Shown piece after piece: positions 33,117-62,548 of a DNA stretch of 64,000 nucleotides. The translations under genes and the position numbers were made by a program. Under the pieces are notes generated by a model. It saw only the letters and a program-made list of their open reading frames with translations. It made no database searches and was not told the origin of the DNA. Source of the DNA: Gemmatimonadaceae bacterium (GTDB lineage: Bacteria > Gemmatimonadota > Gemmatimonadetes > Gemmatimonadales > Gemmatimonadaceae); assembly GCA_035455745.1 (NCBI GenBank), contig DATIEP010000023.1, positions 16,628 through 80,627 of the forward strand. Reading direction: 5' to 3'. Within the stretch, counting starts at the first letter, position 1, and each line of letters opens with the position of its first letter.

Positions 33117-33268
33117 CGCGCGCCGTGCCTGAGCATTTCGATCCTCTTCTCACGCCCAACAACAGTCGGCGTGACTTGGGTCTCGACATTTATACCTTCA
33201 CTCGTCGCAAGAGCTGCGCGTTGAGCGCGACGACGATCGTGCTGAGAGACATCAGCACCGAGGGCGAA

Positions 33269-34555
33269 TCACTCGGCGCGCAACGTCCTCGACGGATCAC
33301 TCCGCGCAGCGCGCGCCGCTGGAACGCCGCACGCCGCGACGGCAACCGCGAGCAGCGTCGCCGCGAGCACCGCGAACACGATCGGGTCGTTGGGGCTGAC
33401 ATCGTACAGGAGCGATCGCTTCCACCGCGTGGCCAGCATCGCCGCGGTCCCGCCGATCAAGAGCCCCACCACGGCCAGCGTCGCTCCTTCACGCAACACG
33501 AGCGCGACGAGACGACCCGGCGCGGCGCCGATCGCCGCACGGACACCGAACTCGCGCTGCCGGCCCGCGACGTACAGCGCCATCACGCCATAGAGACCGA
33601 TCACCGCCAGCGCCAATGCCGCCGCGGCGAATCCGGCGAGTAGCAACTCCGTTAGGCGTCGGTCCTCGAGTGACCGGCTGATCGCGTTGGACAAGGGCCC
33701 CACGTTGTCCAGCGCGATGCTCGCGTCGAGCTCGGCGATCGTCCTTCGGATCGCGGCCACCGTGCCCGCGGACGTCGGGCCTGCCGTTCGCACGGCGAGC
33801 GTCGGGCGACTTCCCGGATTCTGCGCGTATGGGAAGAAGGTGTGCGGGCGCGCCGGCGTCGCCACGTTTTCGTCGCGAATGCTCTCGACCTCGCCGACGA
33901 TCGTGCGCCATGTCGTATCCCCGCTCATGCGAATCCGTTTGCCGATCGCTTCTCCACCCTTCCAGTAGCGATGCGCCAGCTCCTCGTCCACGATGACGAC
34001 CGGCACCGAACTCTTCTGGTCGGCGGACGTGAAGTCCCGGCCGTACAACAGATGCATCCCGAGCGTCGCGATTAACCCGGGCGTGGCGGAAATCTGAACG
34101 GTCTGCGTCGCGGCGCTCGACTCGGCGGCCGGCGCTTGGCCCTCCACAAGATATCCGTCCGTATTCACATCGTTCGCATAAATCGCCGGAAACATTGCGG
34201 CCGCGGCGGTCACGCCGGGGACCGAACGAATGCGTTCGACTAACGCCGACGTGAACACGACGTTCTGCGTCTTGTCCGCCATGCCGTAGCGCTGCGGCGG
34301 CAGTGCCATCGTCATCGATGTCACGCGTTGAGGATCGAATCCGAGGTCGGTCCGGAGAAGCTTCTGGAAGCTCTTCAGCACCAGCCCGGCGGACACGAGC
34401 AGCACGAACGAGAGCGCGATCTGTCCCACGATCAGCGTGTTGTTCAATCGACGCGCCCCACGGTGTGCGCTCCCCTTCGTGCCCGCGAGACTCCCGAGGG
34501 GTCGCATCCCGTTGCCTTGCCGCCTAACGCATGAGTTGAGTTCCTGCCGACGCAT
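33269..34555 (-). CDS. Half-size FtsX/MacB-type permease (second module only), possibly a 5'-truncated ADOP gene
   Basis: Corresponds only to the distal module of the full-length paralogues (LIVGQIALSFVLLVSAGLVLKSF ... GLYGVMALYVAGRQREFGVRAAIGA ... RSDPSRTLRAE). It begins right after the stop of 34584..37061. The ORF-track N-terminus overlapping that gene looks spurious. Confidence 0.5.
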   Translation of the reverse strand: MRRQELNSCVRRQGNGMRPLGSLAGTKGSAHRGARRLNNTLIVGQIALSFVLLVSAGLVLKSFQKLLRTDLGFDPQRVTSMTMALPPQRYGMADKTQNVVFTSALVERIRSVPGVTAAAAMFPAIYANDVNTDGYLVEGQAPAAESSAATQTVQISATPGLIATLGMHLLYGRDFTSADQKSSVPVVIVDEELAHRYWKGGEAIGKRIRMSGDTTWRTIVGEVESIRDENVATPARPHTFFPYAQNPGSRPTLAVRTAGPTSAGTVAAIRRTIAELDASIALDNVGPLSNAISRSLEDRRLTELLLAGFAAAALALAVIGLYGVMALYVAGRQREFGVRAAIGAAPGRLVALVLREGATLAVVGLLIGGTAAMLATRWKRSLLYDVSPNDPIVFAVLAATLLAVAVAACGVPAARAARSDPSRTLRAE

Positions 34556-34583
34556 CGAATGTCGACGCGTGAGGCAGAAGTCG

Positions 34584-37061: not shown

Positions 37062-37172
37062 ACGCCGCGGTCACCTGGTACCGAGGCCGTACGGCGCGGA
37101 ATGTCGCCGGTTTCAACGCGTAATTCGGGTTAGTCAGGACTCGTACCCCGTGCACGCATCGAGGATGGAGCC

Positions 37173-37658
37173 TCAACCGCCACGTGCCGCGTCGATTGCC
37201 GCGATGTCGATCTTCTTCATCTGCATCATCGCGTCGAACGCGCGCTTGGCGGCAGCCGGATCGGGATCGGCGATCGCTTTCGTCAGTGCGATCGGCGTGA
37301 TCTGCCAGCACAATCCCCATCTGTCTTTGCACCAGCCGCACGCGCTTTCCTCACCACCGTTGCCGACGATCGCGTTCCAATAGCGATCCGTTTCCGCCTG
37401 GTCAGCCGTTGCGACCTGAAACGAGAACGCCTCGCTGTGCTTGAACGCGGGTCCGCCGTTGAGCCCGAGGCACGGAATACCCATCACGGTGAACTCGACG
37501 GTCAACACGTCCCCTTTCTTTCCCGACGGATAGTCGCCCGGTGCGCGGTGCACCGCGTCGACCGACGAATCGGGAAAGGTCTGCGCGTAAAATCGCGCCG
37601 CGTTCTCGGCGTCGTCTTTGTACCACAAGCAGATCGTATTCTTTGCTGGCTTAGCCAT
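37173..37658 (-). CDS. VOC family protein (PhnB / 3-demethylubiquinone-9 3-methyltransferase-domain type)
   Basis: ICLWYKDDAENAARFYAQTFPDS...VLTVEFTVMGIPCLGLNGGP...GWCKDRWGLCWQI. Confidence 0.8.
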   Translation of the reverse strand: MAKPAKNTICLWYKDDAENAARFYAQTFPDSSVDAVHRAPGDYPSGKKGDVLTVEFTVMGIPCLGLNGGPAFKHSEAFSFQVATADQAETDRYWNAIVGNGGEESACGWCKDRWGLCWQITPIALTKAIADPDPAAAKRAFDAMMQMKKIDIAAIDAARGG

Positions 37659-37679
37659 GTCGCGTCTCCATCGAGTTGA

Positions 37680-38066
37680 TCATTCGCCGGCGGGCGGTTG
37701 CCAGAGCTCAACCTTGTTCCCTTCGGGATCGATGACCCATGCAAACTTTCCGTACTCGCTGTCGTCGATTTTCTCGAGCACGTTGCAGCCCTCTTCGCGC
37801 AATACGTTCACGAGGCCGTGCAGATCCTCCACCCGATAGTTGACCATGAACGGCGCAGTGCCGGGCGCAAACTGGTCACTCTTCTCCGAGGTGATGGACC
37901 AGGCGGTCGTTCCCGCAAACGGCTTGCCGTCGCTGTCGGTCCATGTGAAAGCCGCGCCACCCCATGCTTGAACATCGATTCCGAGGTGCCGCTTGTACCA
38001 CGCCTGTAATGCCGGAGCGTCTTTGGCTTTGAAGAAAATGCCGCCAATGCCGGTGACTCGCTTCAT
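37680..38066 (-). CDS. VOC family protein (glyoxalase/bleomycin-resistance fold)
   Basis: 128-aa ORF: GIGGIFFKAKDAPALQAWYKRHLGI...YGKFAWVIDPEGNKVELWQP. Confidence 0.8.
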   Translation of the reverse strand: MKRVTGIGGIFFKAKDAPALQAWYKRHLGIDVQAWGGAAFTWTDSDGKPFAGTTAWSITSEKSDQFAPGTAPFMVNYRVEDLHGLVNVLREEGCNVLEKIDDSEYGKFAWVIDPEGNKVELWQPPAGE

Positions 38067-38091
38067 GCGGACCTCCGCCGTTGATGCGTTC

Positions 38092-38185
38092 GAGAAGTGA
38101 GGTTAGGCGATAGCCCGGTGAACCGAAGGGTTGCCAGGCGATGGCGCCGGCGGGATGAATTGGATCCTCACCTCTCCCGTTAGGC
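38092..38185 (-). repeat. Degenerate attC-like palindrome (R' box not recognisable)
   Basis: gagaagtgagg (38092-38102) pairs with cctcacctctc (38166-38176), 10/11. Each arm abuts a GTTAGGC copy (38102, 38179), and a third variant GTTAGGA lies at 38207. Confidence 0.35.
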
Positions 38186-38207
38186 CCTCGAGCTCGCCGG
38201 GCCCCCG

Positions 38208-38369
38208 TTAGGAATCCGGTGCGCCGATCTCTTCGAGGCTGACCTGCGTCAATGCCGCGAGACGCGCCGTATGCTCAATGGTCATGTTCACGAGATTGCC
38301 GTCCTTGTCGAGATCGACGTAGACGGTCTCGGAGATCTCTTTCGTCTCATCGACCGGCTTGGCCGAGAA
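38208..38369 (-). pseudogene. DUF2283-like gene stub (C-terminal 53 codons, no start)
   Basis: Hand translation gives FSAKPVDETKEISETVYVDLDKDGNLVNMTIEHTARLAALTQVSLEEIGAPDS*. It begins in frame immediately after the GNAT stop codon, and its stop TAA lies in TCCTAAC. Confidence 0.45.
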
Positions 38370-38903
38370 TCATCCCTGCTGTTCATACCGCCGAATTGGC
38401 CGACGCATAACGAGGTCGCGTTGCGGATCCGTACCCAGGAGGAAGGTATGCTCGCCGACCTCCGCGAAGCCGCACTTCTTGTAGAACGCGATGGCGCGAG
38501 GGTTGCGTTCCCAGACACCAAGCCAGATCTGATCGGCACCGTGCGTTTCGGCGAGAGCGATCGCCGTGGCCATGAGTGCCTGCGCGACCCCACGCCCCTG
38601 CCACGCTTGCGAGACGTAGAATCGCTGGATCTCGACCGACTGTTGCGCACCGACGCACTCGGGACTGGGACCCCAGCGAAGTTGGGCAAATCCGACGAGT
38701 TGCCCATCCCGTTCGCAGACGAGCGTTTCTAAAGCGGGATCGAGGATCTCCCTGAGTTGCAGCGCTGCGCTGTAGTGGGTTTCACAGTGAAGTTGCATAT
38801 CCTCAGGCGTATTCATGCCTTCCAATGTCCCTCGAAACGTCTGCTCGGCCAACAGTGCCAGGGGACGCGCGTCACTCGCTTGAGCGGGTCGAATGTCAGG
38901 CAT
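38370..38903 (-). CDS. GNAT family N-acetyltransferase
   Basis: Start at MPDIRPAQASDARPLALL. IQRFYVSQAWQGRGVAQALM is the acetyl-CoA motif, and AIAFYKKCGF is also present. Confidence 0.85.
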   Translation of the reverse strand: MPDIRPAQASDARPLALLAEQTFRGTLEGMNTPEDMQLHCETHYSAALQLREILDPALETLVCERDGQLVGFAQLRWGPSPECVGAQQSVEIQRFYVSQAWQGRGVAQALMATAIALAETHGADQIWLGVWERNPRAIAFYKKCGFAEVGEHTFLLGTDPQRDLVMRRPIRRYEQQG

Positions 38904-38924
38904 ATCGGATTGCCGCGTCGGTGC

Positions 38925-38975
38925 GCCTAACGCAGTCCTAAGTGGCGAGCGGGCCCTCACCAGCGCCCGTTAGAC
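38925..38975 (-). repeat. Short attC-like palindrome (P5)
   Basis: On the coding strand, GTCTAAC (38975-38969) ... GTTAGGC (38931-38925), 51 nt, with an inner stem GTGGCGAG/CTCACCAG (6/8). The 3' box ends 21 nt before the GNAT ATG. Confidence 0.4.
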
Positions 38976-39181
38976 TGCCGGCACACGATTTGTGTGCTTT
39001 ACAAATTCAGTCCGCAGTAACCTGACGGTGCAGCCGACCAGCGACGTAATAGAACGCCTCGGCCGCTCTTCCGATAAAGGCCTGCTCGATGGCGTCATGG
39101 TCGAGCGGTTGCGGAATGGCGTGACCCTCAACATCGTAGCGCCACGCGCGAATTTGCTTGAGCGGCAGCAGCCGAAGCAAC

Positions 39182-39206
39182 CTTGTCAGTTGCAGCGTTC
39201 GTTAGC
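39182..39206 (-). repeat. Orphan 5' arm of the attC-like family
   Basis: The coding strand reads AGCTAAC-GAACG-CTGCAACTGACAAG and starts 14 nt after the stop of 39221..40102. No convincing partner arm lies within 140 nt. Confidence 0.5.
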
Positions 39207-39220
39207 TAGCAGCGAGGAGA

Positions 39221-40102
39221 TCATTGACCTGCGAGTCGGGCCATGAGCCCGAGTGCCTGCTGCGGCGAGACAAATGGATTGATCGCTGCCTCGTATGCGG
39301 AAATCGCGTCGTCAAGTTCCCGACCGAGTGGCGCGAGCAATGGCTCGAGAGAAGACCGACTGGCGACGGCGAGATGGTCATTGAATCCTAGGTCCACGCC
39401 GATCCCTGCGCTGATGAAGAGATCATCCTCGGCAAGGATGTCTTCAAGGTGTGGAGGCTCGTCGGCTCTAAGCAGCTCGACAATCCGATGGGCACGCTTT
39501 TCCGTCGTGGCAAAGAGACTGATCTCTCCAGCGGCGTCGTTCAGGACCGATTGGAGCAGTGCGACGAGATCCGCGAACGTTCCGATGCGAAACAGCAATG
39601 TTTTGTCGCGCATCCAGCGCTGCCGCTCTGTGGGCGGCGGATGAATGCGGACCGCCGATCGCGCCGGCGTGAAGCCCTTGAAGACAAGATGTCCAGGCGG
39701 TCCCTCACCGTCGGTTTCGAATTGCCAGGAAACGACGCTACCAGCCTGGCTAAGTGCCCTTGCCGCATCCTCCGTCGAAAAGTGGGCGTTGCCGAGCACC
39801 TCGTACTTGGCGATCAGCGACCACACGAATCGCAGGTAGACAGCGACTTCCTCTCGATTGTTGTTGGTGATCGCGAATCGGTGCCAATGCTGGGCATTGA
39901 TCGAATCGATGGCCTCTGAGTCGCTGATCCCAGCCCAGTGCACGCGCACCGGCGAAATGCCATCCGAGACGAAGCGCGCCCAGTGCAGCGATCCTTCACG
40001 CCAATACTGAATGGGTAGACGGGTCACAGATGTCTGTTGCTGGCTAACGCCTGAAGCTATACTGCAAGCGAATGTAACAATGCGAGCGAAGCGAGCATTC
40101 AC
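39221..40102 (-). CDS. Orphan hypothetical protein (lower-GC cassette)
   Basis: 293-aa ORF with a GTG start and no family recognised. The first 20-25 codons overlap attC-like element P4, so an internal GTG at 40026 (..SVTRLPIQYW) may be the real start. Confidence 0.55.
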   Translation of the reverse strand: MNARFARIVTFACSIASGVSQQQTSVTRLPIQYWREGSLHWARFVSDGISPVRVHWAGISDSEAIDSINAQHWHRFAITNNNREEVAVYLRFVWSLIAKYEVLGNAHFSTEDAARALSQAGSVVSWQFETDGEGPPGHLVFKGFTPARSAVRIHPPPTERQRWMRDKTLLFRIGTFADLVALLQSVLNDAAGEISLFATTEKRAHRIVELLRADEPPHLEDILAEDDLFISAGIGVDLGFNDHLAVASRSSLEPLLAPLGRELDDAISAYEAAINPFVSPQQALGLMARLAGQ

Positions 40103-40135
40103 TAAATCGCTTGTCAGTATCAGCGAGTGTTAGAC
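40042..40135 (-). repeat. attC-like imperfect palindrome (P4)
   Basis: Coding strand: GTCTAAC-ACTC-GCTGATACTGACAAGCG ... CGCTTGCAGTATAGC-TTCAGGC-GTTAGCC, 94 nt. The inner boxes pair 14 bp with 1 mismatch and 2 bulged bases. It starts 22 nt after the stop of 40158..40736. Confidence 0.65.
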
Positions 40136-40157
40136 GACAGCGGCGGGCACTGCGCGC

Positions 40158-40736
40158 CTACGGATGTCCGCCAAACCGCGCAGGGAGGGAGAGGCCGGGC
40201 GCTTCGTATTGCGTGGTGAAGCTCGCCACTTTCCAGTCGCCGCCCACGCGCACAAGCTCGATGCTGTCCACGCCCCTCTCTTCGGCGACGGCGCGCCCTG
40301 GCACGGCGCCCTCGAACGTAACGAACGCATGCGCGATGTGCCCATAGGCATCAATCCGCGCGGTGATGATCCGTTCACGAAAACCCGCCTTGCCCTTCGG
40401 TGTGCCCTCCACCCACGCGCGGAAGTGCGTGATGAAGGTATCGAGCGGCACAGCGCGTGGCGCGACGCCGGTCGTCACGGGATCGACGAACGCCGCGCCG
40501 GGCAATGCCAGCGCGCGCATCGTGGCCCACGCTGGGACGTGGCCCGCGTCAAAAGAGAACGCGGCGTACAACGTGTCCAGCGTGCGGCGGATCGCGCGCT
40601 GCGTGGCCACGTCGAGGGCGGAGTCCGCCGGGGAACGACGAACGGCCGACTGCGCGGCGCCCGAACTGCTCGCGCTGCCAATCGCAATGAGCAACCCGAC
40701 ACCGGCATACACGAATCGAGGAAGAACCTGTTGCAT
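40158..40736 (-). CDS. NTF2/SnoaL-like (DUF4440-type) secreted protein
   Basis: 192-aa ORF with an N-terminal signal (FVYAGVGLLIAIGSASSSGAAQS) and a C-terminus VGGDWKVASFT typical of NTF2-like folds. Confidence 0.45.
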   Translation of the reverse strand: MQQVLPRFVYAGVGLLIAIGSASSSGAAQSAVRRSPADSALDVATQRAIRRTLDTLYAAFSFDAGHVPAWATMRALALPGAAFVDPVTTGVAPRAVPLDTFITHFRAWVEGTPKGKAGFRERIITARIDAYGHIAHAFVTFEGAVPGRAVAEERGVDSIELVRVGGDWKVASFTTQYEAPGLSLPARFGGHP

Positions 40737-40766
40737 GAGTCGTTCAAGTAGATGAATTGAGCTGTC

Positions 40767-40784
40767 GTCTAACGCTTGTTAGGC
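40767..40784. repeat. Back-to-back box pair GTCTAAC-gctt-GTTAGGC (mini hairpin)
   Basis: 7-bp stem with 1 mismatch and a 4-nt loop, 30 nt upstream of the ATG at 40736. Confidence 0.6.
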
Positions 40785-40827
40785 GGCGTCGATAGACTGC
40801 AAGGGATTACAAAATCAAATCTTCTCT

Positions 40828-40931
40828 GCAGTCTAACACGCCCAACGCAAACGGACACGGGTTCGCATAAGTCCAATCGCTGCTCTTGTTTGACATACCG
40901 ACAGTTCACCATACGTCGGGTGTTAGACTGC
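40828..40931 (-). repeat. attC-like imperfect palindrome (P3)
   Basis: Perfect 12-bp outer stem gcaGTCTAACac (40828-40839) / gtGTTAGACtgc (40920-40931). Pairing continues inward with a bulged G, then cc/gg, a and cg. It is 98 nt box to box and lies 107 nt downstream of the esterase stop. Confidence 0.65.
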
Positions 40932-41038
40932 GACGTCGGTCAGCCTATTCCCCCGCTAAAGCCGAGCGTCCCGGAACATCCGCGACCTCGGCACCCAGCC
41001 GGAACTCATACCACAACCGTGCGCTGTCATTCACCGGC

Positions 41039-42787
41039 CTAGTATTCCCAGGCGCTCGTGTTCGTGCCGGACGGCGCGTGCTTCGTGATCGCCGCCGCCA
41101 TTTCCTTGACCAACTCCGCGTTAGTCACGTGCTGCCACCCGTGTCCTTTTTCCGGGCGCCCATAGCGGAACATGCCCGGCACGTGGGGCGACTTCGTCGA
41201 CGCGAGGAAGTGCTGCAGGTCCATCACCGCCAGGTTCAGATAGAAGTTGTCCATGTCCCCGACGTCGACGTGAATCTTGTCCACGAGATCCGGCCCAACG
41301 GTGTTCCAGTTCTTCGCCAGGTACGCTTCGAGATCGTAGCCGTGGTCGCGCATGTAGTCGATCACGGAGCGATCGATGTGCCCCGTTTTCTTGTCCCACA
41401 GCGGCTCGGGATAGCCATCGGCGCCGACAGGAGCGTACACGGATTCCCACGCCTCGAACTGTTCGCCCGAGCGCCCATGGCTGCCGAGCACGTCTTCCAA
41501 ACGACTCAAGTCGCGGATGCTGAGCCACGGCTGCCCGTCGTTGTCGCGCATGACCATGCGCTCGGCATGGTACCACGAGCTGATCGGACTGAACGGCGCG
41601 ATGCCAGGCGCGTCGTCCACGAAGGCGTTCGTGTCGGCGTACGCGTCGAAGGTCCCGTAGTGATGAAAGTCCACGGGATCGGGATAGAGCGTCCAGGTCC
41701 CACCGAAGAACTTGGGATGATAGATCTGCAGCGCGATCGACTCCCACCCGCCGGTCGAGCCGCCGGTTAGCACACGCGCATACGGCGCTTCGATCATCCG
41801 GAAGTGCGATTCGAGATAGGGAATCAGCTCGGTCATGATCGCGTCGCCGTACGGACCGTTGTTCGCCGAGTTGACCGCGTACGAATCATCGAAGTACGGT
41901 GTAGGGTGCTGGAAGGTCACCGCGATCATCCGCGGCATGTTCGGTCCCAGCCACTCGCGTGCGAACACCCATCCCGGTTCTCGGTTGTACGAGGCGAGGA
42001 GCGTCTGGATCTTCGGCGGCAGCGAGACGCTGTCCGGATTGAAGCCGAGCGGCGCGCCGAGCCCGAAGTGCCCCTGCTCGAACACGACAGGATAGTGCAC
42101 GTTCGGGTGTGTCTCGTACCCCGCAGGGAGCAGCACCGTGGCGCCGAGATAGAACGGATGTCCCCAGAACTTCGTGAGCAACGTGCTCTGAATCTTGATG
42201 TGCTTCACCCACTTCGTGTCCGCCGGCATCTGGATGGGCGGGATGACGTGGGTGAGCGAGATCTGCACGGTACCGCCCGCGGCCGGATCGATGTGCACCC
42301 GCTGCGGCTCGCTGATGATGTTGCCCGGCGACGACGTGAAGTGCTGCCCCTCCCACTCATCCATGTGCGCCCAGATGGTATGTCCGTCGGCGCGATGGAA
42401 TTCGGTATAGACGTTCATCACCGCTTGCACCCTGTAATCGCCGGCGGGAATGTCGGAGAGCGACTTGGTGGGATATCCAAGTGTCGACGCGTCGATCACC
42501 GCGGCCTGGCCGGGCGCCAGCGCGCTCACGTCGAGCCCGAAGAGCGGCGTGCTGTTGGTAAAGGAACCGGCGTTCGCGATGGGCGGCGGCGCGGAATCGC
42601 GGCTCAGGGCGAGGAAGACGCGGCCCGTGATCGGCCCGTCGTGCGCTGAGGCAGGAAACGAAATCTCGAAGCGCGGCGGCGCGACGCTCGCGCCGACCGG
42701 GACTCGCGCGCGACGCGTCGGGGAAATGGACGTGCCCGGTGCGACGCCCAAGACCACGAGGGCGAGGGAAAGACTGAGGTTGCGCAT
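41039..42787 (-). CDS. Secreted esterase-family (alpha/beta hydrolase) protein with N-terminal beta-rich domain
   Basis: Start moved to MRNLSLSLALVVLGVAPG (complement of 42785-42787). VLTGGSTGGWESIALQIYHPKFFGG resembles the putative-esterase family nucleophile region. Confidence 0.55.
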   Translation of the reverse strand: MRNLSLSLALVVLGVAPGTSISPTRRARVPVGASVAPPRFEISFPASAHDGPITGRVFLALSRDSAPPPIANAGSFTNSTPLFGLDVSALAPGQAAVIDASTLGYPTKSLSDIPAGDYRVQAVMNVYTEFHRADGHTIWAHMDEWEGQHFTSSPGNIISEPQRVHIDPAAGGTVQISLTHVIPPIQMPADTKWVKHIKIQSTLLTKFWGHPFYLGATVLLPAGYETHPNVHYPVVFEQGHFGLGAPLGFNPDSVSLPPKIQTLLASYNREPGWVFAREWLGPNMPRMIAVTFQHPTPYFDDSYAVNSANNGPYGDAIMTELIPYLESHFRMIEAPYARVLTGGSTGGWESIALQIYHPKFFGGTWTLYPDPVDFHHYGTFDAYADTNAFVDDAPGIAPFSPISSWYHAERMVMRDNDGQPWLSIRDLSRLEDVLGSHGRSGEQFEAWESVYAPVGADGYPEPLWDKKTGHIDRSVIDYMRDHGYDLEAYLAKNWNTVGPDLVDKIHVDVGDMDNFYLNLAVMDLQHFLASTKSPHVPGMFRYGRPEKGHGWQHVTNAELVKEMAAAITKHAPSGTNTSAWEY

Positions 42788-42948
42788 GACGTCCGGCCTC
42801 CGGAGTGAAGGACGGCGGAAGCATAGCGCATGGCCCGGACGTGCGCGACGCAGTCGCTTGTCGGGCGCGGCGCCTCGCTGAAGGTTATGCGACACGCCCA
42901 ACACTGCGCGCACGTACCGTACGCTCCCGGGGTGCTCGAGGCGCGCGA

Positions 42949-43225
42949 CTACCGCTGGAGGGCACTGGGACTCGGTCCCTTGCCTGGCATCACTGCCGCT
43001 TCGACTGACTGTCGGAGCTTGGTCACATCAACATCGAGATTACTGAGGACGGCCAGACCAATGCCGCCGGAATCGTCGAGGATGGCAAGTGCCGATGACT
43101 TCCCTTAGCACGAGCACGTCGTGGGGAACGCGGCGTTCGCCCATGCCCGCTCTCTCTGCAGCGCGTCGAAGGATGTCTGCGGCCTCTTTGGCCGCTAAGT
43201 CCGGATCAATGCCTGATTCGTTCAA
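42949..43225 (-). pseudogene. Clp N-terminal-domain-like gene, apparently frameshifted
   Basis: The 61-aa ORF (MNESGIDPDLAAKEAADILRRAAERAGMGERRVPHDVLVL) continues only after a +1 shift near 43100 as ALAILDDSGGIGLAVLSNLDVDVTKLRQSVEAAV..., with a stop at 42949-42951. Confidence 0.35.
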
Positions 43226-43324
43226 GACCGACTCCAGCAGTTCTACAAATCAGCTGGTACGTCGAGGCTCTCGGCGTCGTCGCCAGGCATCAAGAATACG
43301 ATCTGGGGAAAAAGTCATGTTGCA

Positions 43325-43422
43325 GCCTAACGCCCGAGCTAAGGTGCGGGCGAGTCAAAGAAAAGGGAATGCGCAGCATTCGCAATCATTACGTCGGTTG
43401 TCAGCTTCGGCGTTCGTTAGGC
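43325..43422 (-). repeat. attC-like imperfect palindrome (P2)
   Basis: Coding strand: GCCTAAC-GAACG-CCGAAGCTGACAACCG ... CCTTAGCTCGG-GC-GTTAGGC, 98 nt. The outer boxes are perfect and the inner pairing is about 9 bp with a bulge. Confidence 0.55.
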
Positions 43423-43802
43423 CGCCGCGTCGTGATGTGGGCCGGGTGAGACCCCGGTTGACGGAGCTGCTCTGGATAGCATGCAAGCCGGCGACGCCGG
43501 CACTATCGGCTATGAACGTGGCGGCGAGGTCGTGGTCCAGAGCACAATGCGCCATCCCGCCTCGGTGCGCGTGAGAACCATTGTGCCTGTTTCCGAGACC
43601 ACCTTCCGGGGAGTTCACCCTCGTCCAGACAGATGAAGTGTCCGAGATGGGAGGGCTGTCTCAACCGATCCAGGTAGGCCAGAAACTGCTCGTGAGTTCG
43701 TGGCGGCGAAGCCAAGCCGCGATGCAGTGCTCGGCTCCGGCGAACGGCCCCCAGAAATTCCTGCTCGCGTCGCCGGCTCGGAGTCTCGAGATGTACCGAC
43801 AT
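43355..43802 (-). pseudogene. GNAT (RimJ/RimL-like) acetyltransferase, probably frameshifted
   Basis: ORF 43503..43802 (EQEFLGAVRRSRALHRGLASPPRTHEQFLAYLDRL) has the typical N-terminus. The remainder is found only in an overlapping ORF in another frame (43355..43618). Confidence 0.45.
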
Positions 43803-43829
43803 GGAGAAATGCTTGGGGTAGGTCAGTCT

Positions 43830-43923
43830 GCCTAACGCCAGTGTTACGCCGCGGGCGAATCAAATAGATGCGAGTACAGCGAGCACTCCGCAACTCGACC
43901 GGCGGCTTCGACTTTCGTTAGGC
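43830..43923 (-). repeat. attC-like imperfect palindrome (P1)
   Basis: Coding strand: GCCTAAC-GAAAG-TCGAAGCCGCCGGTCGAG ... TCGCCCGCGGCGTAACA-CTGGC-GTTAGGC, 94 nt. The outer boxes are perfect, and the inner box GCCGCCGGTCGA/TCGCCCGCGGC pairs about 10/12. It starts 55 nt after the AraC stop and ends 27 nt before the GNAT start. Confidence 0.6.
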
Positions 43924-43978: not shown

Positions 43979-44968
43979 CTACCGAGAAGCCGCCGCGCGC
44001 AAACGCTCGGCGTCCCGACGCGGTGGCTGACCAAACAGCCGGACGTACTCCCGATTGAACTGCGACGCGCTCGCGTAACCCACCTCATAGGCAACGGCTT
44101 CCGCACTCGTAGCTTCGGAAAGAAGGAGACGACGAGCCTCCTGCAGGCGCAGATGCTTCTGGTATTGAACCGGACTCATTGCGCACACCGCCTTGAAGTA
44201 GTGATGGAGTGCCGACGGGCTCATGTTGACGTGCTTCGCGAGAGCCTCGATCCGGAGCGGTTCCGCGAAGTGTTCTTTGATCCACGCAATCGCCCCAGAC
44301 ACCCGGCGCAGCCGCCCATCACCGATCGCCATCTGAGCCAAACGTCCAAACTGTTCGCTCTGGAGAAGTCTGTAGTGGAGCTCTCGCAGAATGAGCGGCG
44401 CCAGCACCGGGAGATCCTGCGGCGCATCGAGCAGCCGCACCAGGCGGAGGAACCCGTCGAGCAGCGGAGCCCGTAGCGCGCTCACGTAGAGGGCTCGTCC
44501 GTCGTGATCGTCTCGCGGTGCCTGCCGTCCCGTTTCCACGATCAATGCCGCGAGGTCCCGCGGGTCCACACTGAGAGTCATGCATAGGTACGGCTTGTTC
44601 GGGCTCGCTTCGAAGACACGCCCAACGGCAGGTAGATCCACCGAGACGGCAAGGTATTGTGACTGGTCGTAGATGTACGTCTCGTTGCCCACCGTCACTT
44701 CCTTTCGCCCCTGCGCCACAACGTACACCGCCGGCTCCATGAGGATGGTCGCCGATTCGGTTGGTTGTGAGTACCGATACAGCTTCAACTCCGTGATCGC
44801 CGTCTCGTTCCGCCCTTCGGAATTCGTCCGGCGCTCGAGCACCTTCGCGAGCTCGCGCCGTAGCGCTTCGGCAACTACCACAGTCTCCTCGCGTTCGGCC
44901 GATTCGGATCGACTGCGATTGAATTGCGTAGCTGCGCGTTTCCGATGAGTAGACAGGTTATTCGCCAT
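43979..44968 (-). CDS. AraC family transcriptional regulator
   Basis: 329-aa ORF with a C-terminal HTH_18 (LAKHVNMSPSALHHYFKAVCAMSPVQYQKHLRLQEARRLL...VGYASASQFNREY). Divergent from the aldo/keto reductase gene. Confidence 0.9.
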   Translation of the reverse strand: MANNLSTHRKRAATQFNRSRSESAEREETVVVAEALRRELAKVLERRTNSEGRNETAITELKLYRYSQPTESATILMEPAVYVVAQGRKEVTVGNETYIYDQSQYLAVSVDLPAVGRVFEASPNKPYLCMTLSVDPRDLAALIVETGRQAPRDDHDGRALYVSALRAPLLDGFLRLVRLLDAPQDLPVLAPLILRELHYRLLQSEQFGRLAQMAIGDGRLRRVSGAIAWIKEHFAEPLRIEALAKHVNMSPSALHHYFKAVCAMSPVQYQKHLRLQEARRLLLSEATSAEAVAYEVGYASASQFNREYVRLFGQPPRRDAERLRAAASR

Positions 44969-45158: not shown

Positions 45159-46136
<978 letters not shown>

Positions 46137-46279
46137 CGCTGAAGCGACGGTGCATAGGCGCGGGACTGTTGAGCTGTGTCGCCGGCGCTGCCATGGAGCC
46201 ACGCACGAAGCGCCTGCGGAGCAGGCGCAAATCCTCCGATCGATCAGCCGCGGCGCACGTTAGGCAGCGCGCCGTGATG

Positions 46280-46522
46280 CTAGTGCGTTGCGAGTAGTCC
46301 CTCGACGGAAATGTCCTCGTCGACCTCGGGCCAATGAATGCCCACACCGCCGCCGATGAGCCGATAGTTCGCCCGCGCGTCGGGCGAGGCCTGGTACAGC
46401 AGAGGAAACCAGGCCAACGCTACCGCGACTTCCCGTCCATCCGCGAGCCGAACGTGCAGCGTGTCGACGCCGCACGCAACCTCGACGGCTCGCGGTTCGA
46501 GCCTAACGGCTGAAGTACTCAT
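46280..46522 (-). CDS. DUF2442 domain protein
   Basis: Start at MSTSAVRLEPRAVEV. LHVRLADGREVAVALAWFPLL...IHWPEVDEDISVEGLL is typical of DUF2442. Confidence 0.7.
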   Translation of the reverse strand: MSTSAVRLEPRAVEVACGVDTLHVRLADGREVAVALAWFPLLYQASPDARANYRLIGGGVGIHWPEVDEDISVEGLLATH

Positions 46523-55324: not shown

Positions 55325-55358
55325 GGGTCCCCCTGTCGTTAGGAATGACGCGCTTCGC

Positions 55359-58469: not shown

Positions 58470-58931
58470 TCAGCGGAGCAAACGAGGATCGAAGTCGTAC
58501 ACAGAGATGGAATCGACTGTAAGCCGGCCAAAGTGTGCGTGCTCCGGATTGATGAGAATGTTGAATCCTCCGTCAACAATCACGCTGGGGACTCGCAAGG
58601 CCAAAGAGCGTCCGGACGTGATCCACTCATCGCCGACAGTCTGAACTGACGAAGGGACTGGCGAAACCTTCCAGTCTTTCGGCAACGCACCTGGAGCGAG
58701 ATCCTCCACAAGGGAGTCAGGCACCGTCGCCGAGATCAGCGAGTATCCAACTGGTGATCCGCCGCCTCCACTCAGATGAACCAGAACCTCCAACACGGCG
58801 AGCGCAGAGTTGCCTGACGCGTAGGCGACACGCGTCCCACGGCTGTTCCATCGCGCCCCGTACAGTCGAGCGCCCTCGCCGTTGAACGCGGTAGCGGCAT
58901 ACCGAGTCTTGGTTAGGCGCCAAACGCGCAT
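58470..58931 (-). CDS. RES-domain toxin (NAD+-degrading family)
   Basis: MRVWRLTKTRYAATAFNGEGARLYGARWNSRGTRVAYASGNSALAVLEVLVHL carries the R..E..S signature. Confidence 0.85.
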   Translation of the reverse strand: MRVWRLTKTRYAATAFNGEGARLYGARWNSRGTRVAYASGNSALAVLEVLVHLSGGGGSPVGYSLISATVPDSLVEDLAPGALPKDWKVSPVPSSVQTVGDEWITSGRSLALRVPSVIVDGGFNILINPEHAHFGRLTVDSISVYDFDPRLLR

Positions 58932-58934
58932 CGC

Positions 58935-59420
58935 CTAGGTCGGAATTCCGTGAGCCAACCGGCCAATCAAGCTCTCTACCTCAATGGCTCCAACATCGGT
59001 CGATGCAAAGTCGATTGGCGTTCGGCCTCCAAGCGCCTTGACAGGGTTGGTAAGCCAGCGTTGCGCGGCATCCGCGCTTCCTTCGAACAACTCGATTGCG
59101 CGGGCAACGATTCGCGACATGCGAACCAAGCGATCTGTTTCGTCGCGCGCGAAGCGCCCACTCTCCTTTCGTCTTGCAAGTGTGCGTTCAGGAATCTCGG
59201 CCACTTGCGCGAGAACGCGATATGGGAGGTCCGTATTGCGATGAAACCTCTCAAACGCGGCGTACGTGAGCCCGCGCCGAATGTGTTCGACAACGTACAG
59301 AGGATCGTAGTTTCGCAGGCCGAATAGCGCGACGTAGTAATGGCCTGCTCGATGGCCTGCTTCCTGATGACTCAGAAGCTCGGCGATATCGGCTGGGATC
59401 TTACGGGCTGTGCTTACCAT
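58935..59420 (-). CDS. Xre/MbcA/ParS-type antitoxin (DUF2384)
   Basis: Start at MVSTARKIPADIAELL. The C-terminus AAQRWLTNPVKALGGRTPIDFASTDVGAIEVESLIGRLAHG is the typical toxin-binding domain. A Shine-Dalgarno aggagg precedes the ATG. Confidence 0.8.
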   Translation of the reverse strand: MVSTARKIPADIAELLSHQEAGHRAGHYYVALFGLRNYDPLYVVEHIRRGLTYAAFERFHRNTDLPYRVLAQVAEIPERTLARRKESGRFARDETDRLVRMSRIVARAIELFEGSADAAQRWLTNPVKALGGRTPIDFASTDVGAIEVESLIGRLAHGIPT

Positions 59421-59434
59421 GCCGCCTCCTGGCT

Positions 59435-59466
59435 GCCATATGGCGTAACTTACAACGCCATATGGC
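59435..59466. promoter_or_regulatory. Perfect 11-bp inverted repeat, candidate operator of the Xre-RES module
   Basis: gccatatggcg (59435-59445), a 10-nt loop, then cgccatatggc (59456-59466), beginning 15 nt upstream of the antitoxin ATG. Confidence 0.45.
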
Positions 59467-59487
59467 AACTGCCAAGGCGCGAGCCGA

Positions 59488-59637
59488 CTAGCCTCCTAGG
59501 CGAAATTGCAGGGAACGCCGAACAGTCGCCAGGTCATCTCCATAGTGAAGGCGGACAAACTCGAAGACCTCGCGAGGCGCGTGGTCATGTTGGGTCATGT
59601 CGGCGAGGAGATCTTCTTCAAGTTGGGAGAGTACCAT
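59488..59637 (-). CDS. Possible 49-aa ORF at the head of the Xre-RES cassette
   Basis: Hand translation gives MVLSQLEEDLLADMTQHDHAPREVFEFVRLHYGDDLATVRRSLQFRLGG*. The ATG lies 9 nt after the 3' box of P9. It is too short for the ORF track. Confidence 0.25.
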   Translation of the reverse strand: MVLSQLEEDLLADMTQHDHAPREVFEFVRLHYGDDLATVRRSLQFRLGG

Positions 59638-59646
59638 TTGCACAGC

Positions 59647-59741
59647 CAGAAACGCCCGAGTTCAGCTGGCCGGCGGCCACGTGGACCGTGCATGCGGTCG
59701 GAGCGTTAGGCTGTCACGTCAGCCCGAACGAGCCGTTAGCC
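59647..59741 (-). repeat. attC-like palindrome with degenerate 3' box (P9)
   Basis: Coding strand: GGCTAAC-GGCTC-GTTCGGGCTGAC ... GGCCAGCTGAAC-TCGGGC-GTTTCTG, 95 nt. The inner boxes pair about 9/12 with one bulge. Confidence 0.45.
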
Positions 59742-59780
59742 CGAAGGCGAGCCGACGGGTGGGTTGCGTCCCCATCCCCA
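59721..59780. repeat. Non-coding copy of the 60-nt block that forms the Imm50-like gene 3' end at 60407-60466
   Basis: 54/60 identical. It would read SPWGWGRNPPVGSPSG* but is preceded by an in-frame stop. Confidence 0.8.
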
Positions 59781-59837
59781 GGGTGATCATCGACCGAAAC
59801 GCTTAGCCATAGCCACAAGAGGAGGCAACGACTCAGC

Positions 59838-60242
59838 TTATGAAGCGGCAGCCAGCGTCTTGAACGGTACCGTGGCCACGATCCCCCTGACCTGCTTGCG
59901 GAGATCCGCGTCAAGGGTGACGAACGCGTCAGCCTGGAGCTTGGCGACGGCGATGTACTCCGCCTTACCAGTATCTGCCCACCCCAGTTGCTCCGCCATC
60001 TTCCACGCGACAGCCCGTGAGACGCGGTCGCCAAGAAGGCGCACGCGCATCGATGTTATTCCATCAAGGAGTGCCGTCGCATCGTCTTGGCTCACCTCTC
60101 CCCGACGATATGCTCGGTACACAATCGATAGCGCATCAGATCGCAAGACATTGGGGCCAACAAGCTGGTGCGCGCTCGGCACCACGATCCCTTCACGAAC
60201 CAGCCGGACGGCAACCTCCGCGTCGATACCATAACGAGTCAT
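59838..60242 (-). CDS. PIN-domain-like protein (VapC-like), no cognate antitoxin gene seen
   Basis: Start at MTRYGIDAEVAVRLV. The C-terminus GKAEYIAVAKLQADAFVTLDADL resembles the D-x-YIA-A...L-T-D region of PIN toxins. Confidence 0.45.
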   Translation of the reverse strand: MTRYGIDAEVAVRLVREGIVVPSAHQLVGPNVLRSDALSIVYRAYRRGEVSQDDATALLDGITSMRVRLLGDRVSRAVAWKMAEQLGWADTGKAEYIAVAKLQADAFVTLDADLRKQVRGIVATVPFKTLAAAS

Positions 60243-60275
60243 AGCCGTTGCGTACCTCAAGTCATTTCGTGGTCG

Positions 60276-60376
60276 GCATAACGCCGAGTTCACCCGCACG
60301 CGCACATCAACAAGATGCGGCCGCGCAGCGGCCGCCGTCCCGAACCGTGCTTGTCGGGTGCAACGCTTCGTTAGGC
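60276..60376 (-). repeat. attC-like imperfect palindrome (P7)
   Basis: Coding strand: GCCTAAC-GAAGC-GTTGCACCCGACAAGC ... GCGTGCGGGTGAAC-TCGGC-GTTATGC, 101 nt. The inner boxes pair 13 bp with 1 mismatch and 2 bulges. The loop contains the GC hairpin gcggccgc-tgc-gcggccgc (60317-60335). The element ends 33 nt before the PIN ATG. Confidence 0.65.
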
Positions 60377-60406
60377 CTCAGCGAGGATGATGCCTGCACG
60401 CGCTCG

Positions 60407-60466
60407 AGCCCTAACGAGTCGTTAGCGCGTATGCGAGCCAACGGGTGGGTTGCGTCCCCATCCCCA
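60407..60466. repeat. 60-nt junction block (coding copy, 3' end of the Imm50-like gene)
   Basis: See 59721-59780. It includes the mini hairpin ctaacg-agt-cgttag (60411-60425) around the stop codon. Confidence 0.8.
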
Positions 60467-60895
60467 CGGCTCGACCCTGCGGACTACTGCGTCGTTGCAG
60501 CTGAAGCGGCCCCCGACGCCGTGGGAGCTCGCCAGCACCACCTCGAACTTTGCCCACTCCAGCTGATCGCGTGTCCGATCCATGATCGCCAGCTCCCAGA
60601 GTGCATTCTGGTCGTTGAACTCCGAGAGCTCAAGCTGCGCGATCCGTCGGAACTCGAACGTGACAAGGCACTCCTTCGACAGGACGTATGTGCCATTCGG
60701 CTCGACCCCGGGACCGGCCAGGTACGCGTAGACTGCCAGCGTGAGTGTCGGCCCCGCGTTCTCGCCAAACCCGCCGCGGTCGAGCACGAGCTGCACAACC
60801 TGGGCATCGTGAAACGTGGGCCAGTGGCCGAACCACTCGACGACGAGCTGTGCACCGTCGATGGACGGTGCGATTGGAGAATCGGATGGCGGCAC
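60422..60895 (-). CDS. Imm50-like immunity protein (polymorphic-toxin immunity family)
   Basis: 157-aa ORF. WFGHWPTFHDAQVVQLVLDR matches the FG-x-WP-x-FHDA signature I associate with Imm50-family proteins. No toxin gene is adjacent. Confidence 0.45.
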   Translation of the reverse strand: MPPSDSPIAPSIDGAQLVVEWFGHWPTFHDAQVVQLVLDRGGFGENAGPTLTLAVYAYLAGPGVEPNGTYVLSKECLVTFEFRRIAQLELSEFNDQNALWELAIMDRTRDQLEWAKFEVVLASSHGVGGRFSCNDAVVRRVEPWGWGRNPPVGSHTR

Positions 60896-60916
60896 GGGCG
60901 AAGGAACGTGTGTGCG

Positions 60917-61040
60917 GGCTAACGCGTAAGGTCAGCTGCGGCGGCGGCATTCGCAGGCGCCAGACAATCAGATAATGCGATGCACCAGCCAAGCGCGCCA
61001 GTATGCATTCAGCGCCGTCCGCTGCAGCGCCTCGTTAGAC
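60917..61040 (-). repeat. attC-like imperfect palindrome (P6)
   Basis: Coding strand: GTCTAAC-GAGGC-GCTGCAGCGGACGG ... CCGCCGCCGCAGC-TGACCTTACGC-GTTAGCC, 124 nt. The inner boxes pair about 10/14. It ends 21 nt before the Imm50-like ATG. Confidence 0.55.
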
Positions 61041-61136
61041 GGAGCCCCTCAGGTGTACGGAGGCGCCGACCACCCGCGGAAGCGTGCGAAGCGGACGGGC
61101 AAAGCGATCCAGTTCTGCGTTCGACGCCAACCCTCG

Positions 61137-61586
61137 CTATTCGTCGTCCGGGATGCCGCGAAGCGCCTCAAGAAATGCGCGCGAACCAGCGCCGTCAGGC
61201 AGGCCCCGCAGGGCCTTGAGCATCGCAACGGGACCGCGCCCGTGCTCGAGACCCCAACTGTGTCCTCGAGCGAACGCGGCGTAGATCTCGTGACGCATCA
61301 CCCGATGGATCTCCCGGCCGAGTTGGCGTCTGGCCCGCCGCTGACGCCAGTAGCGCTCGGGATTCGCTGTTGCTTCCGCCATCAGGCGGGTCTCTCGGCG
61401 CGATAACCGGCGGAGGGGGTGGCCTAAAACGTCGGCCCACCGGGCGCCAGGCTTGAGCGCCCGCATGCGTTGCAGCAACGCGTCGCGGCCATCACCGGCC
61501 ATGGCGAGAGCGCCGAGGCGATCCGGGATCAGCCCAAGGCGCTCCGCTTCCGCGTCGAATGCCTCGATAAACTCCTCCGAAGTCAT
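61137..61586 (-). CDS. Hypothetical protein
   Basis: 149-aa ORF. The ATG overlaps the stop of the upstream gene (ATGA at 61583-61586). No family recognised. Confidence 0.5.
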   Translation of the reverse strand: MTSEEFIEAFDAEAERLGLIPDRLGALAMAGDGRDALLQRMRALKPGARWADVLGHPLRRLSRRETRLMAEATANPERYWRQRRARRQLGREIHRVMRHEIYAAFARGHSWGLEHGRGPVAMLKALRGLPDGAGSRAFLEALRGIPDDE

Positions 61587-62314
61587 CTCTCCCCCACGAT
61601 GCGTCTCGGCGCCACGCCTAACGCCAACGTTCGGCTGCGAGCGCGCAGGAATGCGACTCCCGATGCGGCTCGGTCGCCGGGCGCGCCCGTCAGCCGCGAC
61701 AATCCGTTAGGCATCGGCTCGCGCCCCTCGCTCACGGCGCGCGGCGCGGGCTGCCGAGCCGCCGCGCAGCCGCGCGCCATCCTTAGGTGGGTTGTCAGCT
61801 GCAACGATCGATGTGCGTGTTCCGCTGCGATCAAGGCGCGACTCGCGGCAATCCGGAACTCCTGAATGGGGAACTGCGTCCCAGCGCAGAACTCCTCTAT
61901 CACAGCCAGTGCAGAATCGTAGAGGTCGCTCCGGCGCAGAGCGAGAACCAGTTCCGCGTACCCGAGGTAGCCATCGTCGCCCACCTGGGGGAAGGCGCGT
62001 CGGGCCAAGAAGGCACGTTGGTAGGAATCGAGGGCTTCTGATGCCCGCCCGAGATCGACGAGCGATTCGGCGCGGAGCGCGAGTGCGGAAGCGAGTTGAC
62101 ATGGATCGGGGAATTCAAGAATGAGCCGATCCAGGAGTCCGAGCGCAGCACGCGTCAGATGTTCGTCGCCCGCCTCAAATAGATGCGCCGCCTGAATACG
62201 CAGGTACTGCGCCTTACGGTGAGCTCCGCGTGAGCGAGCGAGTCTCGCATTGAACTCGGCCGCATCGTGGTCACTCCACGTCGATCGACGAAACCACTCA
62301 ACCTTTTCCGTCAT
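61583..62314 (-). CDS. Helical-repeat (TPR-like) hypothetical protein
   Basis: Start moved to MTEKVEWFRRSTWSDHDAAEFNARL (complement of 62312-62314). The ORF-track N-terminus (MREGGGLALGIGRSTAVFIVAGAL) is the decayed permease 5' fragment of the right repeat. Confidence 0.5.
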   Translation of the reverse strand: MTEKVEWFRRSTWSDHDAAEFNARLARSRGAHRKAQYLRIQAAHLFEAGDEHLTRAALGLLDRLILEFPDPCQLASALALRAESLVDLGRASEALDSYQRAFLARRAFPQVGDDGYLGYAELVLALRRSDLYDSALAVIEEFCAGTQFPIQEFRIAASRALIAAEHAHRSLQLTTHLRMARGCAAARQPAPRAVSEGREPMPNGLSRLTGAPGDRAASGVAFLRARSRTLALGVAPRRIVGER

Positions 62315-62416
62315 CGTGATCTGGTGCCGTATACCGCCCGAGCTAACGTGCGGAGCCGCAGGGTCAGAGCAACACGTTGACACAACATCGCCGCACCGCA
62401 TCATCATTTCATTGCG

Positions 62417-62548
62417 GAGCGCACCGGCGACGATGAACACCGCCGTCGATCGACCGATGCCTAACGCGAGCCCGCCGCCTTCACGCACCTGCCGATCGTC
62501 TCCCAGGTGCGCGTCGTCACGTCCGGACCGAACGTCTTGGCAATGAGC
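62417..62548. repeat. Right copy of the duplicated DUF1697-3'end / permease-5'end junction
   Basis: Carries the intact DUF1697 3' end plus a permease start remnant (MREGG..LALGIG.STAVF) with an 89-nt internal deletion relative to 57654-57875. Confidence 0.8.

Follow-up and report, generated by a model that had tools for sequence, protein, structure and literature searches.

We analysed a 64,000-nucleotide stretch of DNA from a Gemmatimonadaceae bacterium (the window), within which an initial annotation had read positions 38092–43923, here called array 1, as an integrase-less, integron-like cassette array. Very probably this interval does hold integron gene cassettes, that is, small and mostly promoterless accessory genes with attC sites of a Gemmatimonadaceae type, lying in clusters of attC sites lacking integron-integrases (CALINs); a second cluster is present at 58.4–62.5 kb. 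The assignment to CALIN-type cassettes is supported by a family of related sites adjacent to IntI in other genomes, by covariation within that family, by the recovery of the aadA1 and dfrA1 attC sites with a model of the family, by one cassette shared with a metagenome contig, L181, and by the absence of the attC-bearing blocks from a related locus, L173. Integrase-less clusters bounded by attC sites are an ordinary kind of element. What is unusual here, and merits attention, is not the kind of element but the genome-wide occurrence of its R-box word, GCCTAAC.

The bottom strand of an attC site folds into a hairpin in which R'' pairs with R' as one integrase-binding box and L'' with L' as the other. 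The strand that recombines is marked by an unpaired spacer and by two extrahelical bases on the L'' arm. The integrase, IntI, cuts the AAC triplet between its A and C, which corresponds to G/TT on the top strand, and cassettes leave as circles and insert at attI or at secondary sites. A covariance model, R1, was built from 18 attC sites taken only from integrase-linked loci of other Gemmatimonadaceae genomes, with none from the window, and was run over the whole 64 kb with filters off. Strong matches (51–63 bits) were obtained at six sites, all on the minus strand. Three of these lie in array 1, namely P1 (43923–43830; 60.0 bits, E 4e-15), P2 (43422–43325; 59.3 bits, E 7e-15) and P4 (40135–40042; 62.7 bits, E 7e-16). 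The others, B1 (61712–61616; 57.2 bits, E 3e-14), B3 (60376–60276; 51.5 bits, E 1e-12) and B5 (58462–58365; 58.1 bits, E 2e-14), lie in the second cluster. The opposite strands of the six sites scored just 8–17 bits, those of P1, P2 and P4 giving 11–16 bits (15 bits for P1). In the rest of the 64 kb, no R1 score fell below E 0.2 except for B2 (0.008), P5 (0.08) and opposite-strand echoes of three of the strong sites.

P1, P2 and P4 share one layout. An outer 7-nt box, GCCTAAC or GTCTAAC, is followed by a short unpaired spacer and a 15–17-nt paired box that carries two bulged bases on its 5' arm; the partner of this box lies near the 3' end, where the element closes with GTTAGGC or GTTAGCC. Complementary RYYYAAC/GTTRRRY outer boxes are present by sequence in P1, P2, P3, P4, P5, B1 and B2, while R' is mutated in B3 (GTTATGC) and B5 (GTTCGAT). 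In the R1 alignments, the L''/L' box and the unpaired spacer are present in P1, P2, P4, B1, B3 and B5 and not in P3 or P5. When folded as single strands, the bottom strands of P1 (z −2.05), P2 (z −2.32), P4, B3 (z −2.16) and B5 had z scores of −1.9 to −2.8 against shuffles, and B1 had a z score of −1.4.

All the elements listed in the initial annotation are present in the sequence, on the minus strand and where it had placed them, but only some of the seven stand as attC sites. P1, P2 and P4 do, both by R1 (59–63 bits) and by folding (z −2.0 to −2.8), but P3, P5 and the 'degenerate element' do not. P3 (40928–40831, minus strand) has the boxes claimed for it (GTCTAAC/GTTAGAC) and, counting three flanking bases, a perfect 12-bp outer stem, but it scores a non-significant 9–11 bits and folds with z −0.41. 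P5 (38975–38925, minus strand) is an attC-like remnant (14.9 bits, E 0.08; z −0.36); at 51 nt it is shorter than the attC range of 57–141 nt, the strong sites and B2 being 94–124 nt long. The degenerate element at 38185–38092 (minus strand) is an unverified palindrome without an R1 match, whose two GCCTAAC copies are direct and not inverted. The orphan 5' arm at 39206–39182 (minus strand; AGCTAACGAACGCTGCAACTGACAAGG) is a recognisable R''–L'' half of an attC, agreeing by eye with the 5'-arm consensus of the family at 22 of 28 bases.

The reverse test was to run R1 on 12 kb of a class 1 integron from a Salmonella plasmid; the aadA1 attC sequence used occurs exactly in 1962 plasmid records. R1 recovered attC_aadA1 (44.5 bits, E 3e-11) as well as attC_dfrA1 (24.2 bits, E 3e-5), in each case with the ends exact and the strand correct. 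The next match in these 12 kb was a short hairpin (15.2 bits, E 0.012), and the remainder scored below 9 bits. The bulged bases of the aadA1 site and of the six window sites occupy the same R1 positions, 6 bp apart. In published sites the extrahelical bases lie on the L'' arm with a 6-bp stem from first to last, and on the bottom strand the last is T and the first usually G (PMC5027507). In the window the last extrahelical base is T in five of the six sites and G in P1, whereas the first, throughout this attC family, is a bottom-strand C (a G on the top strand) rather than the usual G.

The family is specific to the lineage. A search of one genome per species with the 5'-arm pattern GCCTAACGAACGNNGNAGCTGAC yielded 85 loci with about 280 sites of the family between them; nearly every locus comes from a Gemmatimonadaceae or Gemmatimonadota metagenome-assembled genome. 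Whole elements of about 100 nt are 75–85% identical between the window and other Gemmatimonadaceae genomes. Using IntI1 as the tblastn query, IntI homologues were found at 9 of the 85 loci; eight are substantial or full-length and about 50% identical, and one is a 34-aa end fragment. The NCBIfam integron integrase model TIGR02249 gave 387–443 bits, against a cut-off of 265, at all six integrase loci scanned, with matches running from model positions 1–21 to 315. Sites of the family thus directly follow a genuine intI in at least eight related genomes: the arrays open just past its 3' end, on the strand of intI itself, and are dense (13 sites in 6.4 kb of L051, 14 sites in L068). In the alignment of the 18 integrase-linked sites, 96.3% of paired cells can pair, and compensatory changes are seen in 13 of 24 pairs. 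None of 500 shuffles reached the values of the alignment, and structures slid along it paired only 26–40% of cells.

Two observations concern these integrons themselves. In those of L051 (intI at 258–1326), L060, L036, L046 and L088, intI is transcribed toward the cassettes; co-orientation of intI with its cassettes is known as the 'inverted integrase' layout. A candidate attI crossover with a GTTAGGC or GTTAGG core lies 80–200 nt past the intI stop codon in related integrase loci.

One cassette can be compared between two different settings. The P4 gene cassette (40042..40773, minus strand) comprises a TTAGAC core, a 192-aa open reading frame (ORF; 40736–40158) and the P4 site. A homologue of the ORF on metagenome contig L181 is 90% identical, and window positions 40775–40044 match L181 4178–4909 with 91.4% nucleotide identity. 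The ends of the match are the R' of P4 and, at the other side, the GTTAGAC of a mini palindrome (GCCTAAC-AAGC-GTTAGAC; 40784–40767, minus strand), which has the form of an attC reduced to its R boxes and supplies the left boundary of the cassette. The neighbours of the shared cassette differ in L181, where they are a beta-lactamase-fold protein, a lipocalin and an IS110-family transposase, and the array there has four co-oriented attC sites of 40–76 bits. This alignment shows, for the P4 cassette only, movement as a unit bounded at the G/TT cores. A tblastn search with the cassette genes of the window against the 85 genome loci gave three weak matches only. The IS110-family transposase gene of L181 (3013–4056) sits within the cassette array, immediately upstream of the cassette boundary, a placement that recalls IS1111-type elements, which target attC sites.

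The second comparison is with contig L173, whose shared genes show about 93% identity with those of the window and which has the same Ank–esterase–ADOP backbone, but is without the window blocks 46523–42883 and 41036–37151; a 172-aa gene and a TauE gene are found there instead. R1 had no match in L173. In the presence/absence comparison suggested in the initial annotation, both attC blocks were missing from L173 and one cassette was found among other neighbours in L181. The putative esterase (582 aa; 41039..42787, minus strand; weak PF00756 match), which had been counted as a cassette, is kept in L173 at the equal position with 93% nucleotide identity and no attC. It is therefore a resident gene and not a recent cassette, and array 1 is more accurately two attC-bearing blocks that flank it. 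The upstream block probably begins near 46507, past the interval first proposed, and takes in a DUF2442 gene, an aldo-keto reductase (AKR) gene and an AraC regulator gene. A solitary GTTAGGC in R' orientation (46501..46507, minus strand), inside the start of the DUF2442 ORF and 17 nt from the L173 synteny break at 46524, is the probable upstream boundary of array 1. The DUF2442 ORF (46280..46522, minus strand; PF10387, E 1e-19), a small ORF absent from L173, is probably its first cassette.

A cluster counts as a CALIN when two or more attC sites lie on one strand, less than 4 kb from each other, and intI is missing within 4 kb (Cury et al. 2016, PMC4889954). The spacings in the window are 0.4 kb (P1–P2), 3.2 kb (P2–P4), 1.2 kb (B1–B3) and 1.8 kb (B3–B5). 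As the initial annotation had stated, there is no intI in the window (tblastn with IntI of the lineage, best E 0.6), and the 7.6 kb past position 64000, covered by contigs L175–L180, hold no IntI and no further attC. Both clusters are therefore CALINs by the definition above; a complete integron, with its intI, is present neither in the window nor in the 7.6 kb beyond. Signs of decay are seen in stem mismatches, in the mutated R' boxes of B3 and B5, in orphan half sites and R-box-only sites, and in a Clp_N fragment and a DUF2283 stub, and the clusters look old. The blocks may have been brought in by an IntI working in trans, or imported DNA may have recombined; they would have settled on either side of the resident esterase and would now be decaying.

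The alternative that fares best, though we consider it improbable, is that the clusters are not independent integrase-less arrays but the distal parts of a single complete chromosomal integron, with its intI somewhere beyond the window, that rearrangement or the insertion of ordinary genes has split. The two clusters share a strand and are 12 kb apart, large integrase-linked arrays of this attC family exist in related genomes, and rearrangement is one of the origins of CALINs given by Cury et al. (PMC8618304, PMC4889954). The lack of intI in the 64 kb, and of both intI and further attC sites in the 7.6 kb past its right end, speaks against such a split, as does the DNA between the clusters, which is of native type with core-like genes and many copies of the heptamer GCCTAAC. 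L173, too, has that backbone but neither of the attC blocks.

The heptamer is not special to the listed palindromes, a point not seen in the initial annotation. GYCTAAC occurs 94 times in the 64 kb, against 5 ± 2.3 expected. Heptamer statistics were plain counts compared with dinucleotide-preserving shuffles; with maximal-order Markov statistics the heptamer did not stand out, its sub-words being just as enriched. The exact word GCCTAAC accounts for 87 copies, or about 1.4 per kb, against about 5 copies expected (for example at 1969, 11384, 27207 and 52420), and the word is also found in L092, L173, L175, L067 and L083. In 61 of the 87 copies it is followed by G (GCCTAACG), as in attC R boxes, and variants with a single mismatch are at background level. 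Since the word occurs throughout the window, a match to the outer box is weak evidence for an attC here, and it is the interior structure and the model that carry the case. The solitary copies are not attC sites, as R1 has no match outside the elements listed above.

The abundance of this word bears on a second alternative, in which the palindromes are repeats resembling repetitive extragenic palindromes and bacterial interspersed mosaic elements (REP/BIME), or terminators, in which the genome-wide GCCTAAC happens to be paired in inverted order and which have nothing to do with integrons. The heptamer is indeed about 17-fold over-represented across the window, P3 and P5 look like little more than two inverted words, and uptake-type words elsewhere often form inverted pairs behind genes. 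We nevertheless regard this as very unlikely. A spread of the REP/BIME kind, named in advance as the result that would count against cassettes, was not seen: full elements, as R1 matches, are confined to two clusters on one strand within 64 kb plus 7.6 kb, and none occurs in L092 or L173. The conserved interior, with L boxes and bulges, is common to the IntI-adjacent sites and the aadA1 and dfrA1 attCs, the P4 cassette is bounded exactly at G/TT cores, and outside the clusters not one inverted pair of words 40–150 nt apart was found despite about 70 solitary words. Hardly credible is a third alternative, miniature inverted-repeat transposable elements (MITEs), that is, non-autonomous elements with GCCTAAC/GTTAGGC as terminal inverted repeats, which would suit the repeats themselves and the uniform length of about 95–100 nt, but not the lack of target-site duplications, the strand specificity relative to genes, the linkage to IntI in relatives, the ORF plus element (not the element alone) as the unit common to L181, or the fact that lone copies with flanking duplications at unrelated loci were not seen among 180 collected loci.

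Several points do weigh against the reading as integron cassettes. The fold z scores of the strong sites are modest (−1.4 to −2.8), and P3, P5 and the element at 38185–38092 fail both R1 and the fold test. R1 is a surrogate, a lineage model in place of the attC model of IntegronFinder. The window blocks replace other genes of L173 and are not plain additions, which fits homologous replacement as well as it fits site-specific insertion, and the esterase, first counted among the cassettes, is conserved in that relative without attC sites. No intI is known for the source genome, and present-day activity is unproven.

Most copies of the heptamer stand alone within long ordinary genes, among them a kinase, a GH2 hydrolase, a helicase and ADOP permeases, in both orientations and in every stop-free frame. 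Rare TTA and CTA codons and altered amino acids come with the word, and 22 of the 36 TTA codons among 13,611 codons fall within it. In six genes the TAA or TAG stop codon is embedded in the heptamer, as GCC TAA C or GT TAG GC (1166–1172, 12838–12844, 24833–24839, 48345–48351, 55357–55363 and 62459–62465), which is a cost-free place for it. The cassette ORFs together with the AraC and AKR genes, about 7 kb in all, are free of the word, against an expectation of about 9 copies. This absence from cassette ORFs and the low GC of the region indicate that the blocks are foreign. An artefact of the window assembly was ruled out, as the heptamers recur in place in independent metagenome assemblies, whose 18 differences over 16.6 kb all lie outside heptamers.

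The distribution of the word among relatives is narrow. In L092, the locus with the closest GH2 orthologue (77% amino-acid identity), there are 17 copies within 10.5 kb but no attC. In 79 other loci there are 22 copies in 907 kb, or 0.024 per kb, so the heptamer is about 60 times denser than normal in the ordinary genes of this organism. Copies within genes are found in only two, possibly four, of the 85 genome loci. L051 had seemed rich in them but was rejected, all its copies belonging to attC sites; spurious long ORFs in GC-rich DNA had misled the count. Where the word is shared it is conserved: L173 keeps 11 of 12 copies unchanged (0.61 expected from 93% identity) and L092 keeps 4 of 4 (0.21 expected), with flanking bases that differ. 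Outgroups have other amino acids at the heptamer positions. From these comparisons, GCCTAAC is maintained, by selection or molecular drive, through the native genes of a few related genomes, and by analogy the solitary heptamer behaves like a DNA uptake sequence. A full-text literature search for the heptamer gave primer lists only, and the literature searched contained no paper on both uptake sequences and Gemmatimonadota.

The same heptamer is the R-box core of the attC sites of the lineage, and it is also present in the candidate attI regions just 3' of intI in relatives. That the most over-represented 7-mer would be the integron core by chance is unlikely (about 1 in 8000 heptamer pairs). 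Read on the sense strand, each cluster opens with a lone GTTAGGC oriented as an R' (46507–46501 and 62465–62459), which would be the layout expected from cassette insertion at a secondary site; with a heptamer every 0.7 kb, such coincidences at a cluster start are not rare. None of the sampled integrase-bearing loci belongs to the heptamer-rich clade, and L051, L060, L036, L046 and L088 have no heptamers within genes.

A tentative explanation, which we think has a limited chance of being right, is that in a narrow Gemmatimonadaceae clade the R-box octamer GCCTAACG of its own attC and attI sites was driven to about 1.4 per kb in native genes, possibly as a self-recognition signal of the uptake type that is functionally tied to the integron. 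In one version, imported DNA could be selected through the R-box word, and arrays, with two words per attC, could be taken up preferentially. In another, the solitary GTTAGGC copies could be attI-like landing pads, which would explain small integrase-less clusters among ordinary genes, each starting at the word. In Vibrio, natural transformation feeds cassette recruitment (PMC12614218), which by analogy makes a link between heptamer and arrays plausible. If the word is an uptake or recombination signal, it would connect natural transformation directly to integron site recognition, and would be, to our knowledge, the first such signal outside Neisseriaceae and Pasteurellaceae.

The remaining features of array 1 are as follows. 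GC content is 0.60–0.63 over 37–46 kb (0.67 in the 42–43 kb bin) against mostly 0.65–0.72 in the flanks, in line with the lower GC first described. The genes share one orientation, as had been claimed, with the exception of the AKR gene (45159–46136) on the plus strand, which is divergent from the AraC regulator (43979–44881, minus strand); both have Pfam support and are absent from L173. Going down the minus strand, a Clp_N fragment (42952..43104; PF02861, E 2e-5), a 51-aa frame fragment, is a pseudogene remnant. An orphan ORF of 268 aa (39221..40027, minus strand) is cassette-like, is called as a gene in L001 and has no Pfam match. A GNAT gene (38370–38816), a DUF2283 fragment (38208–38363) and two VOC-type genes (37680–38066 and 37173–37658), all on the minus strand and matched by Pfam, form the distal part of the window-specific block (37173..38816). 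Pfam thus bears out most of the gene content first given (AraC, GNAT, two VOC, DUF2283 stub, Clp_N and, weakly, the esterase), but not the 'decayed GNAT' or the 'NTF2-like' gene.

Some fainter traces of attC sites were also noted. At 46150..46265 (minus strand), GCCTAAC followed by GTGCG and an L''-like CCGCGGCTGA, recognised by eye, is possibly a decayed attC, with no recognisable R' and no R1 match. Upstream of the esterase in both genomes (window 42800–42880, L173 2800–2860), a stretch GCGCCGCGCCCGACAAGCG resembles the attC L'' arm GCTGACAAGCG and, by this resemblance, may be a very old attC relic. A BLAST search of P3, P5, the element at 38185–38092, B2 and B4 against all collected loci found no related elements elsewhere. 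Nothing in the whole window matched Rfam at its gathering thresholds, Rfam having no usable attC family.

The second cluster (58470..62465, minus strand) opens at the GTTAGGC of 62465–62459, which overlaps the DUF1697 stop codon. Its genes are orphan ORFs, an Imm50 gene (60422–60895), a Xre antitoxin gene (58935–59468) and a RES toxin gene (58470–58931), by Pfam. Besides the three strong sites it has B2 (61040–60917, minus strand), a weak attC of 124 nt (18.3 bits, E 0.008) that folds no better than shuffles (z −0.65), and a weak element, B4. Orphan L'' half sites are present near 61830 and 58200. Mini palindromes of R''-like and R'-like boxes around a 4–5-nt loop occur at 60409–60427 and 59723–59741, as at 40767–40784 in array 1 (for example GCCTAACAAGCGTTAGAC), and look like attC sites that have lost their interior. 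A direct repeat of about 50 nt (GGGGACGCAACCCACCCGTYGGCTCGC...GCTAACGRCTCGTT) lies ahead of both B3 and B4 (about 60405–60458 and 59720–59775).

The region also varies relative to L173 beyond the cassettes. Further window-only regions are an ADOP permease block (genes of 819 aa and 412 aa plus one of 128 aa; 32464–37083) and an Rce1-like gene (48364–49233). One metagenome contig, L003 (8392–12062), follows the window at 99.9% identity as far as the second VOC gene and diverges inside the 3' end of that gene, not at an attC. Past the divergence it has genes of 167 aa, 578 aa (TPR) and 180 aa, an attC at 11148–11241 (33.8 bits) and no heptamer copies; it may be a strain variant or an assembly chimera. 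Duplicated MacB_PCD/FtsX (ADOP-type) permeases are confirmed by Pfam at 26077–28995, 29785–32463 and 34584–37061. The 412-aa MacB_PCD/FtsX gene (33269–34507) and the gene at 55359–57941 are identified solely by precomputed matches on metagenome contigs. For the 872-aa ORF at 51466–54084, the overlapping gene on metagenome contigs matches ABC2_membrane families, and it may not be ADOP-type. Each cassette cluster lies directly upstream of a co-oriented ADOP-type gene.

Compared with known integron types, the window sites share with the aadA1 and dfrA1 attCs the RYYYAAC and GTTRRRY cores of R'' and R' and the positions of spacer, L box and bulges, and both are found by R1. They differ from the aadA1 site in a longer variable terminal region (94–101 nt against 60 nt in total), and their L-box sequence (GTTGCAGCTG or GCTGAAGCTG) is unlike that of aadA1 or dfrA1. 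The initial annotation knew of no attC family built on exactly this word, but GCCTAAC/GTTAGGC is the classical attC core consensus and not a new one. As in sedentary chromosomal integrons, such as those with the Vibrio cholerae repeats, the attC family is homogeneous and restricted to a lineage, with toxin–antitoxin cassettes and, in relatives of the window, dense arrays beside intI; unlike them, intI in the relatives is co-oriented with the cassettes and the first extrahelical base is C, not G. Integrons are already on record for Gemmatimonadota (PMC8618304), although the 11 taxa for which Ghaly et al. 2021 (PMC8352920) give attC models do not include this phylum. Like other CALINs (PMC4889954), the clusters have few cassettes, accessory or unknown functions and signs of decay; they differ in lying 12 kb apart in native DNA, one of them split by a resident gene, and in having been detected with a lineage model. 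As an integron result, then, the finding is incremental: a conserved Gemmatimonadaceae attC family with C as its first extrahelical base, co-oriented intI in relatives, and decaying clusters in a soil bacterium.

The heptamer invites a different comparison, with the DNA uptake sequences (DUS) of Neisseriaceae and the uptake signal sequences (USS) of Pasteurellaceae. Like these, it is an exact short word at about one per kb, in both orientations and within genes at a cost in codons and amino acids, and close relatives conserve it, while distant ones and recently acquired DNA are without it. It differs in that the window word is only 7–8 bases long and is identical to the integron R-box core, an identity for which we know of no parallel among known uptake sequences.

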